Notes under the pieces: model-generated
What the model saw: only the letters and a program-made list of their open reading frames with translations
Told to the model about the DNA's origin: nothing
Databases searched by the model: none
Made by a program: the position numbers and the translations under genes
Source: a virus
Virus record (IMG/VR): IMGVR_UViG_3300021560_000014
Span: 32,001-96,000 of that record
DNA length: 64,000 nt
Direction: 5' to 3' (one strand)
Part shown: positions 37,929 to 38,774 of the stretch, in pieces
Position numbering within the stretch: position 1 is the stretch's first letter
Layout: every line of letters starts with the position of its first letter

Positions 37929-38258
37929 AGTAAGGGGGTGCTACCTTGCCTTGCCGATGTTGACCCAGAGCGCGCCGCCGTCGCGGATCATGTCGCCGAC
38001 GTGACAGCCGTCCGCATTGGGGTGCTTCCCACAGTCAGGAAAGGGGTTGATCGAGCCGGTCTGGGCTGAAGGGTCAGGGTGTGGAGTCGAAGGGGGCTGC
38101 TGGGGGCAGCTGGTCAGGGACAGCGCGATGGCCGTGCTGATGAGAATTATCCCTGACCCCGGCCACGGTTTCAACACCAAAGTGAAATTTTCCCCCAGGC
38201 TAGCCGCCGTTTTATAGATTCGTATTCCATAAGTTCTCGTAGGAAAGCGAAAATGAGG

Positions 38259-38378
38259 TCGGGAGGGAGTGATTTGAACACTCGCGGCGGGAGCTGGCGA
38301 GGACGCGCGCATCCTCCAGGGGCTCCCGCCGACCGGAGTTCGGGTCCGGCGCATTCATCCAGGCTCTGCCACCTCCCG
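38259..38378 (-). tRNA. Atypical class II tRNA-like gene, anticodon CGA (Ser), 49-nt variable arm
   Basis: Minus strand: acceptor CGGGAGG/CCTCCCG, TG, D arm GCAG-AGCCTGGATGA-ATGC, anticodon arm CCGGA-CCCGAAC-TCCGG, T arm GAGTG-TTCAAAT-CACTC; C33, A73, no encoded CCA. Confidence 0.75.
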
Positions 38379-38774
38379 AGTGATTACGGCTCCGGAATAC
38401 TGGCAGCCAGGATCGCTGCTACGATCATGATGGCGTTGTGCTTCCCCTCGGTAATGTCGTCGCCAATGTATCCTTCTGCTACTAGGGCCTCCATGACGGC
38501 ATCGAACCTCTCAACCTTCGCTTTGGCTTGGCTTTTGAGCACTATGGTGTCATGATCCATGGTGATTACTTTCTTCCGCATTCGAGGGCCAATTTCGCGA
38601 CCAGCTTCCCCATCCAGCGCGGCTGATTTTCCTCGATCCACACCTCGGCGGCCTTGCGGTCGTCAAACCTATGCTGGCTCGAAACAGAGAACCAGACCGG
38701 GCCGTCCTTGATAGCGGCGCACCAGGGCGAGGCGGTGGCGCGCACGGTGGCGTCAATCGGGTTGGGCTGCTTTT

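Follow-up and report, generated by a model that had tools for sequence, protein, structure and literature searches.

A phage tRNA-Ser(CGA)-type gene with a 49-nt variable region

The window analysed here, a stretch of 64,000 nucleotides (64 kb), corresponds to bases 32001-96000 of a 105,936-bp IMG/VR phage contig that is estimated to be 76% complete and has a G+C content of ~61%. At 38259..38378, on the minus strand, it carries one tRNA gene, of tRNA-Ser(CGA) type and 120 nt long, running from C1 to the discriminator A73, which was delimited by the minimum free energy (MFE) cloverleaf, by a custom covariance model and by ARAGORN on versions with a trimmed arm. The gene occupies a true intergenic gap between genes of the same strand, a placement usual for phage tRNAs, and its variable region is 49 nt long. 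In our judgement the chances are slightly better than even that this element is a working tRNA-Ser(CGA), charged by the host, whose over-long arm was perhaps shaped by host tRNA-targeting defences. A live gene is favoured because the serine-type cloverleaf is complete and compensated, the canonical anticodon arm serves a heavily used codon and the placement is the usual one.

All parts of the element lie on the minus strand. The 5' strand of the acceptor stem, CGGGAGG (38372..38378), pairs with 38260-38266, all seven pairs having probabilities of 0.96-1.0. It is followed by a D arm of class II (serine) type (38351..38369) with a 3-bp stem, G13/A22, A14, G15, G18G19 and G20b, and by the anticodon arm (38333..38349), in which the stem CCGGA/TCCGG forms all five pairs and the loop CCCGAAC presents the CGA anticodon at 38340-38342. 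The variable region (38284..38332) consists of U44, a 10-bp outer stem, a 5/4 internal loop, a 7-bp inner stem, a CGCG loop and C48. The T arm (38267..38283) has a fully paired stem, GAGTG/CACTC (5/5), and a TTCAAAT loop, with G53-C61, T54, T55, C56 and A58 in place. The 3' strand of the acceptor stem, CCTCCCG, together with the discriminator A73 at 38259, closes the gene (38259..38266). The CCA end is only partly encoded, as the 3' end reads ACC and then T (38256-38258). The first-pass annotation had described a full minus-strand cloverleaf at 38259-38378 with the anticodon CGA, which the MFE fold and the covariance-model match bear out. The 49 nt that it placed between the anticodon and T stems were confirmed, and C33, C1-G72, A73 and the ACCT end are all to be read in the sequence from 38378 to 38259.

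Folded without constraints, the gene adopted the cloverleaf as its MFE structure (-63.3 kcal/mol, z = -3.3 against shuffles), with base-pair probabilities of 0.84-1.0 in the acceptor, anticodon, variable and T stems. The 3-bp D stem was weak in silico (pair probability 0.15), and the complete cloverleaf including it lay 2.5 kcal/mol above the MFE. The architecture is intact, there being no mismatch across the 20 bp of the core stems and the 17 bp of the variable arm. Moreover, the conserved tRNA bases have all been kept (U8, A14, G15/C48, G18G19, G20b, G53-C61, T54, T55, C56 and A58), A37 is present next to the CGA anticodon and the anticodon stem-loop is of canonical size. Thus, the element has the stems, the TTCRANY loop and the conserved bases of a general cloverleaf, but C33 where U33 is expected. 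C1 is preceded by U-1, and an eighth pair, U-1:A73, is possible, which would leave no discriminator.

The variable arm in isolation folded with -32.5 kcal/mol (z = -4.25). It had been described as a set of stacked helices including TGG/CCA and GAGGAT/GTCCTC. A stem-on-stem arm is indeed present, but these two helices share one G and cannot both form fully, and the arm fold that contains TGG/CCA is 2 kcal/mol worse than the favoured form with the 10-bp stem, the 5/4 loop and the 7-bp stem. The arm sequence occurs once in the phage and is without match to the TIGR arrays of this phage, and the motif at its tip had no match in viral contigs. A role as a second (pseudo-)anticodon arm was considered and rejected, since a 5-bp stem with a 7-nt loop is impossible and the tip closes only loops of 4, 6 or 8 nt.

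A rival reading is that the interior of this arm is removed after transcription, by intron-like excision at the bulges or an RNase III-type cut, to give a normal-armed tRNA or a split tRNA joined by its stems. The stacked helices total ~17-19 bp, which is near the size of an RNase III substrate, and an alternative fold, in which a 3-bp helix separates a bulge of 3 nt on one strand from a bulge of 2 nt on the other, bears a loose resemblance to the archaeal bulge-helix-bulge. This fold, however, is not a true bulge-helix-bulge, which has two 3-nt bulges 4 bp apart, and it is 2 kcal/mol worse. The nearest protein relatives among known phages belong to phages of bacteria (Mycobacterium phages), bacteria are not known to have the tRNA splicing endonuclease, and no RtcB ligase was found in the 106 kb of the contig. 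The intron mode of ARAGORN proposed a tRNA-Arg(CCT) with a 41-nt intron, a forced fit that needs a mismatched anticodon stem and was rejected. Excision of the arm is considered quite unlikely.

The behaviour of the tRNA finders, which the first-pass annotation had put forward as a check, was divided. With default settings ARAGORN called no tRNA anywhere in the 106 kb, and Rfam returned nothing at the gathering score and, on 166 nt, no match to its tRNA model when E values up to 10 were allowed, its only matches at a relaxed threshold being chance microRNA-like ones on the hairpin. A custom tRNA-Ser covariance model, in contrast, matched the element end to end. This model was built from 18 ordinary tRNA-Ser genes with a standard cloverleaf, namely 17 cellular genes (16 CGA and one GGA) and one phage tRNA-Ser(UGA). 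It gave the element 79.6 bits (E 3.7e-16) over model positions 1-89 of 89, with 36 nt inserted in the variable loop and standard pairs only, and the element was its sole match in the 64-kb window. In an alignment of 26 serine-type tRNAs including the element 99.5% of the cells pair, although this alignment was fitted to the model and shows only that the element fits the family. When the arm was trimmed so that 3 to 9 bp of the outer stem were kept and closed with four native bases, ARAGORN in default mode called tRNA-Ser(cga) in all seven constructs, which indicates that it had missed the gene because the arm is too long. A filter, or the composition of the sequence, may account for the failure of Rfam. 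Both textbook numbering and the common gene finders take about two dozen bases as the upper limit of a variable arm. Since ARAGORN missed the element and three other long-armed genes checked, and the Rfam tRNA model missed the element, phage tRNA inventories are incomplete.

The element descends from a tRNA-Ser. The pattern of its D arm matched 33 stretches among 185,579 species genomes; this and the other collection scans used exact patterns, which diverged relatives could escape. The genes extracted were tRNA-Ser(CGA), except for two cut at a contig end and one with the anticodon GGA, and the tRNA-Ser(CGA) sources included Marinimicrobia, Myxococcota, Burkholderiales and Armatimonadota. The matched cellular genes all share the acceptor GGAGAGG/CCTCTCC and G73, and the D arm of the element is that of cellular tRNA-Ser(CGA) but for two D-loop bases. 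Over the 73 positions outside the variable stem the element is 77-81% identical to bacterial tRNA-Ser(CGA), as against 52-74% for the other phage serine tRNAs and long-armed tRNAs compared. Relative to the bacterial genes the changes are non-random: pair 1:72 has changed from G-C to C-G, 3:70 from A-U to G-C, 52:62 from G-C to U-A, 29:41 from U-A to G-C (against the Myxococcota type) and 50:64 from G-U to A-U, with pairing kept; the T stem differs at two positions, both still paired. Unpaired differences are limited to positions 33, 38, 73 and the D loop. The earlier view that pairing has been retained in a tRNA-derived gene therefore holds, the changes in the acceptor, anticodon and T stems being all compensated.

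The serine-type features retained are G15/C48, C11-G24, G2-C71, G20b and the 3-bp D stem. The variable stem begins directly after position 44 and stops one base short of the T stem, so that the serine-type geometry is unchanged. With bacterial and phage class II tRNA-Ser(CGA) the element also shares the 7/5 layout of acceptor and T stems and the combination of CGA with A37. Its body is that of a bacterial class II tRNA-Ser, but C1-G72 and A73 stand where G1-C72 and G73 are expected, and C33 and C38 are further differences. A tRNA-Leu identity does not fit, because despite A73 the 15/48 pair is G/C and the D loop is of the tRNA-Ser(CGA) type. Likewise, tRNA-Sec and the allo-tRNAs have a long variable arm recognised by seryl-tRNA synthetase (SerRS), a recognition that is predicted for the element (Mukai et al. 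2017, PMC5389517; PMC7609411). They are built, however, on 8/4, 9/3, 8/5 or 9/4 acceptor/T layouts with a long D stem, whereas the element has a 7/5 layout, a 3-bp D stem and a serine anticodon. It lacks their 12- or 13-bp acceptor-T domain and long D stem, and this identity was rejected.

The rarity of these features was assessed in 75 distinct normal-length phage tRNAs of class II that carry the same D-arm pattern. As the first-pass annotation had maintained, the arm is far beyond the normal length: the variable region measures 13-22 nt in the 75 phage tRNAs and 17-20 nt in the 18 reference genes, so that the 49 nt of the element are more than twice the value of any normal tRNA sampled, and the phage sample holds no precedent for them. 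In the literature, the coverage of which is incomplete, no natural variable arm this large was found, which is weak evidence of absence. The other departures are less isolated. U33 is found in 73 of the 75 tRNAs, the other two, both tRNA-Ser(GCU), having C33; G73 is the discriminator of 61, while A73 and U73 are seen in seven each, the A73 cases including tRNA-Ser(UGA) genes with an encoded CCA; and pair 1:72 is G-C in 71 and C-G in one. Thus, C33, A73 and C1-G72 each occur singly in otherwise regular phage serine-type tRNAs, most of which have an encoded CCA. These precedents are L178 and L205 for C33, L181, L224 and L238 for A73 (with encoded CCA) and L228 for C1-G72.

The codon that the CGA anticodon would read is abundant in the phage. 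In a crude gene set, UCG accounts for 507 of 2084 serine codons (24%), or ~16 per 1000 codons, and is the second most used of them. The FtsK-like protein has six UCG codons, all of which are matched by Ser or Thr and none by Leu in eight homologues, and four of these positions are invariant serines, including the Walker A serine. The nine UCG codons of the RecD-like helicase fall in columns in which 51% of the aligned cells are Ser, Thr, Ala or Gly and 1% are Leu, and these columns resemble those of other serine codons and not those of leucine codons. The alignments therefore show that UCG is serine in this phage, and the insertion of leucine would damage the phage's own proteins. This bears on the suggestion, made in the first-pass annotation, of a mischarged or missense tRNA. 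In such a case A73 would admit leucyl-tRNA synthetase (LeuRS) or another synthetase, and UCG would be read partly as leucine or another residue. A73 is a key leucine determinant in E. coli, where LeuRS ignores the anticodon and the arm (PMC9976931). Nevertheless, the Levitt pair is G15/C48 and not the A15/U48 needed for leucylation (PMC9976931), the D loop and arm geometry are of serine type, and all 15 UCG codons checked lie in Ser, Thr or small-residue columns (four of them invariant Ser; Leu 1% in the helicase and none in the FtsK-like protein). With the serine-type body kept, the missense idea is not sustained and appears very unlikely. The earlier annotation omitted the simplest reading, namely an ordinary phage tRNA that inserts serine and has an oversized arm.

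According to this reading, the tRNA would be transcribed with a leftward early or replication operon that comprises the FtsK-like ATPase, a 305-aa protein and two small open reading frames (ORFs). Its 5' end would be cut by host RNase P, U-1 being present, and its 3' end trimmed by host processing and completed by the host CCA enzyme. Charging with serine would be carried out by host SerRS, which may recognise the long variable arm, by its base and direction, and not the anticodon, and the charged tRNA would then decode the abundant UCG codons of the phage. The 49-nt arm is predicted to point away from the faces of the tRNA that contact the ribosome and could thus be tolerated. Most likely, the arm together with C33, C38, C1-G72 and A73 would render the molecule a poor substrate of a tRNA-targeting defence or toxin of the host, and evasion of that defence would keep UCG decoding running during infection. 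That the changes are concentrated in the arm, the anticodon loop and the acceptor end suggests that the gene has been under pressure from a factor recognising tRNA-Ser, and a host tRNA-targeting nuclease would be the obvious candidate (PMC10264068).

Parts of this scheme have parallels in known systems. SerRS charging relies chiefly on the variable arm and not on the anticodon, while G73 and G1-C72 are described as conserved or identity elements (PMC9976931), so that SerRS may charge the element with reduced efficiency. Engineered tRNAs with a hairpin aptamer at the tip of the variable arm stay active in E. coli (PMC7590224). Such aptamer-tagged tRNAs (Mukai 2020, PMC7590224) and the V-Spinach tRNAs resemble the element in having a hairpin module on top of a serine-type variable-arm stem, and the aptamer-tagged designs are active in translation and can be bound or sequestered by protein (PMC7590224). 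They are, however, man-made, with 9/3 allo-tRNA frames and known aptamers, whereas the element occurs in nature and has a 7/5 frame. For phage tRNAs with an altered anticodon loop, escape from anticodon nucleases has been proposed (van den Berg et al. 2023, PMC10264068). Like these tRNAs, the element is phage-borne and altered beside the anticodon (C33 and C38). Mycobacteriophages nevertheless tend to avoid NGA serine tRNAs, in which the cut falls inside the anticodon (PMC10264068), and this phage carries one; arm expansion is also absent from that nuclease-escape model. If the arm or the altered acceptor end protects against host tRNA-cutting defences, the contest between phage and host over tRNAs would gain a structural strategy in addition to point changes in the anticodon loop. 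Moreover, an intact natural tRNA with a 49-nt arm would, if real, mean that the translation machinery tolerates far larger appendages than assumed, and the element offers a natural frame for tRNA design. If the gene is dead, it is a curiosity only.

Several observations weigh against a working tRNA. Besides the silence of Rfam, the search for relatives was negative: the D arm of the element followed by a long gap was found neither in viral contigs nor in the 185,579 species genomes (0 in each), and no serine-type tRNA was present in 946 kb of sequence from 80 FtsK-anchored phage loci, nor in the five helicase-bearing phage records that came closest. In consequence, since no homologue was found, selection on the gene is deduced from one sequence. 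Functionally, C33 replaces a U33 that is nearly universal. Most bacterial tRNA-Ser are described as having an absolutely conserved G1-C72, and G73 as an identity element (PMC9976931), so that their alteration may result in poor charging by SerRS. Furthermore, engineered allo-tRNAs with a bulge in a stem of the variable arm were no longer charged by SerRS (PMC7590224), although the internal loop of the element sits beyond a clean 10-bp stem. Other searches for relatives gave a similar picture. A blastn comparison with 50,697 phage genomes returned nothing, the D-arm pattern in viral contigs yielded one ordinary phage tRNA-Ser(UGA), and the D arm with a long gap matched six stretches in metagenomes, none of them related. 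For the check on covariation proposed by the first-pass annotation, there was no homologue in any collection searched.

The single copy without conserved relatives, together with three non-standard hallmark positions and rejection by the standard finders, is also what would be expected of a recently inactivated pseudo-tRNA, that is, a captured tRNA-Ser(CGA) with an insertion or hairpin expansion in the arm and changes at 33, 38 and 73. However, neither the core stems nor the arm contain a mismatch, and the four fully changed pairs (1:72, 3:70, 29:41 and 52:62) are all compensated, an outcome that neutral decay does not produce. The bases engaged in tertiary contacts are also intact, and C33, A73 and C1-G72 are each seen singly in intact phage tRNAs. 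Recent gene death is accordingly ranked third among the readings and is held to be improbable.

The same departures from the standard would suit a processed tRNA-shaped RNA that acts outside translation, either as a decoy or sponge for a host defence protein that cleaves or binds tRNA, or as a tRNA frame displaying a protein-bound hairpin. Each of C33, C1-G72 and A73 detracts from the standard function of a tRNA-Ser (PMC9976931). The arm ends in a hairpin of high stability that contains an internal loop, an element of the kind bound by proteins; aptamer-tipped engineered tRNAs can be sequestered by their cognate protein (PMC7590224), and the pattern scan gave many phage tRNA-framed RNAs with non-standard middles. 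On the other hand, a decoy has no need of an anticodon stem-loop of canonical size, a sense anticodon for a heavily used codon or A37, all of which the element possesses. The hairpin motif is also absent elsewhere in the phage and from viral contigs, and family searches of the neighbours revealed no recognisable RNA-binding protein adjoining the gene. Such a decoy or scaffold is a fair second reading, unlikely as it is when taken by itself.

The tRNA gene has a small ORF on either side. Upstream, a small ORF of at most 85 aa (38384..38641, minus strand, from the ORF list) has its stop codon 5 nt ahead of the tRNA gene; it had no Pfam or PHROG match. Downstream, after an AT-rich spacer of ~75 nt, lies a second small ORF (37941..38183, minus strand) with a hydrophobic N-terminus and a lipoprotein-like signal ending LTSC, for which no family match was obtained. 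A longer 137-aa form of this ORF, which would overlap the tRNA and begin with a low-complexity Arg/Pro/Ser N-terminus, is probably not real. No promoter- or terminator-like site of the tRNA gene's own was found, and because nothing promoter-like lies between the upstream ORF and the tRNA, the two are probably co-transcribed, to judge from the sequence. The genes for the FtsK-like ATPase, a PD-(D/E)XK nuclease and an excisionase-like protein share the strand of the tRNA gene. The FtsK-like ATPase is 44% identical to its counterparts in Mycobacterium cluster J phages; no close phage relative was present in the reachable collections, where FtsK-like relatives were at most 50% identical. The 305-aa protein encoded beside the tRNA gene has a single homologue, on a 1-kb contig.

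The excisionase-like helix-turn-helix gene, 1.1 kb from the tRNA gene, recalls a phage attachment site copying a host tRNA gene, and phages often integrate into tRNA genes. Attachment sites, however, are known to carry only the 3' part of the tRNA, while the element has both halves, paired with each other. No tyrosine or serine recombinase was found in the 106 kb of this 76% complete contig, nor was an integrase, a resolvase, a CCA-adding enzyme or a class II synthetase core, and no cellular tRNA with this arm was present among the 185,579 species genomes. Nor did a host genome come to light in which an identical 3' half stands at a prophage junction. Of all the readings considered, an attachment-site remnant is the least likely, and its probability is taken to be minimal.

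Oversized variable regions also occur elsewhere. A looser D-arm pattern followed by a long gap matched 54 viral stretches, of which two proved on parsing to combine an oversized variable region with a canonical anticodon arm: L087 (2874-2978, minus strand; phage contig, anticodon GCU, 34-nt variable region) and L071 (961-1078, minus strand; a 52-kb IMG/VR phage contig, anticodon GAA, 48-nt variable region, G73, 7/5 layout). The metagenome scan added L007 (104-210, minus strand; anticodon UAU, 36-nt variable region) and L006 (3949-4073, plus strand; anticodon UGC, 54-nt variable region, U73). These four long-armed serine-type tRNAs come from two phage contigs, one genomic island and one short metagenome contig. 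The custom covariance model matched all of them end to end with 61-80 bits. Like the element, they combine a 7/5 cloverleaf, a serine-type D arm and a canonical anticodon arm with the oversized variable region. They differ from it in having U33 and G1-C72, and G73 in three cases (U73 in L006), and are 63-74% identical to it outside the arm. Because the arms share no sequence, the element and these four tRNAs look like independent arm expansions and not a family.

These genes are relevant to a further possibility, that the oversized arm is a natural protein-binding handle on a working tRNA-Ser, by which the phage's UCG reader would be shielded, sequestered or privately charged. The element would in that case be nature's equivalent of the engineered aptamer-tagged tRNAs. 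The element would then belong to a rare undescribed class with variable regions of 34-54 nt, some with non-serine anticodons (GAA, UGC and UAU), in phage contigs and a genomic island. We regard this as unlikely. If L071, whose GAA is a phenylalanine anticodon, were charged by SerRS, it would insert Ser at UUC/UUU codons.

The long-armed genes also differ in how they are detected. The Rfam tRNA model scores L006, L007, L071 and L087 at 47-57 bits but not the segment 38235-38400 of the window. For L071 the custom model gave 74.8 bits and the Rfam tRNA model 56.6 bits, and ARAGORN returned nothing. The island that carries L006 includes an integrase, a YhcG-type nuclease and a DUF4145 gene, and adjoins tRNA-Cys and tRNA-Gly.

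A larger set of tRNA-framed RNAs came from IMG/VR (L043, L045, L050, L052-L054, L062, L068, L075, L080-L082, L088, L092-L094 and L096). In RNAs of the L043 type a perfect 7-bp acceptor stem, often GGAAGGN/NCCTTCC with A73, is combined with a T arm and a D arm of serine type. In place of a standard anticodon arm, their middles hold large inserts or hairpins capped by tetraloops, after which comes a short, ACATC-like variable loop. The Rfam tRNA model scores L043 and L045 at 44-52 bits, and ARAGORN misses L043, L045 and L054, the three that were checked. Finally, two tRNA-Ser-like genes from metagenomes, L004 (1150-1242, minus strand) and L003 (46-139, plus strand), have a normal variable arm and an insertion of ~26-35 nt in the region of the anticodon loop, which looks intron-like in both.

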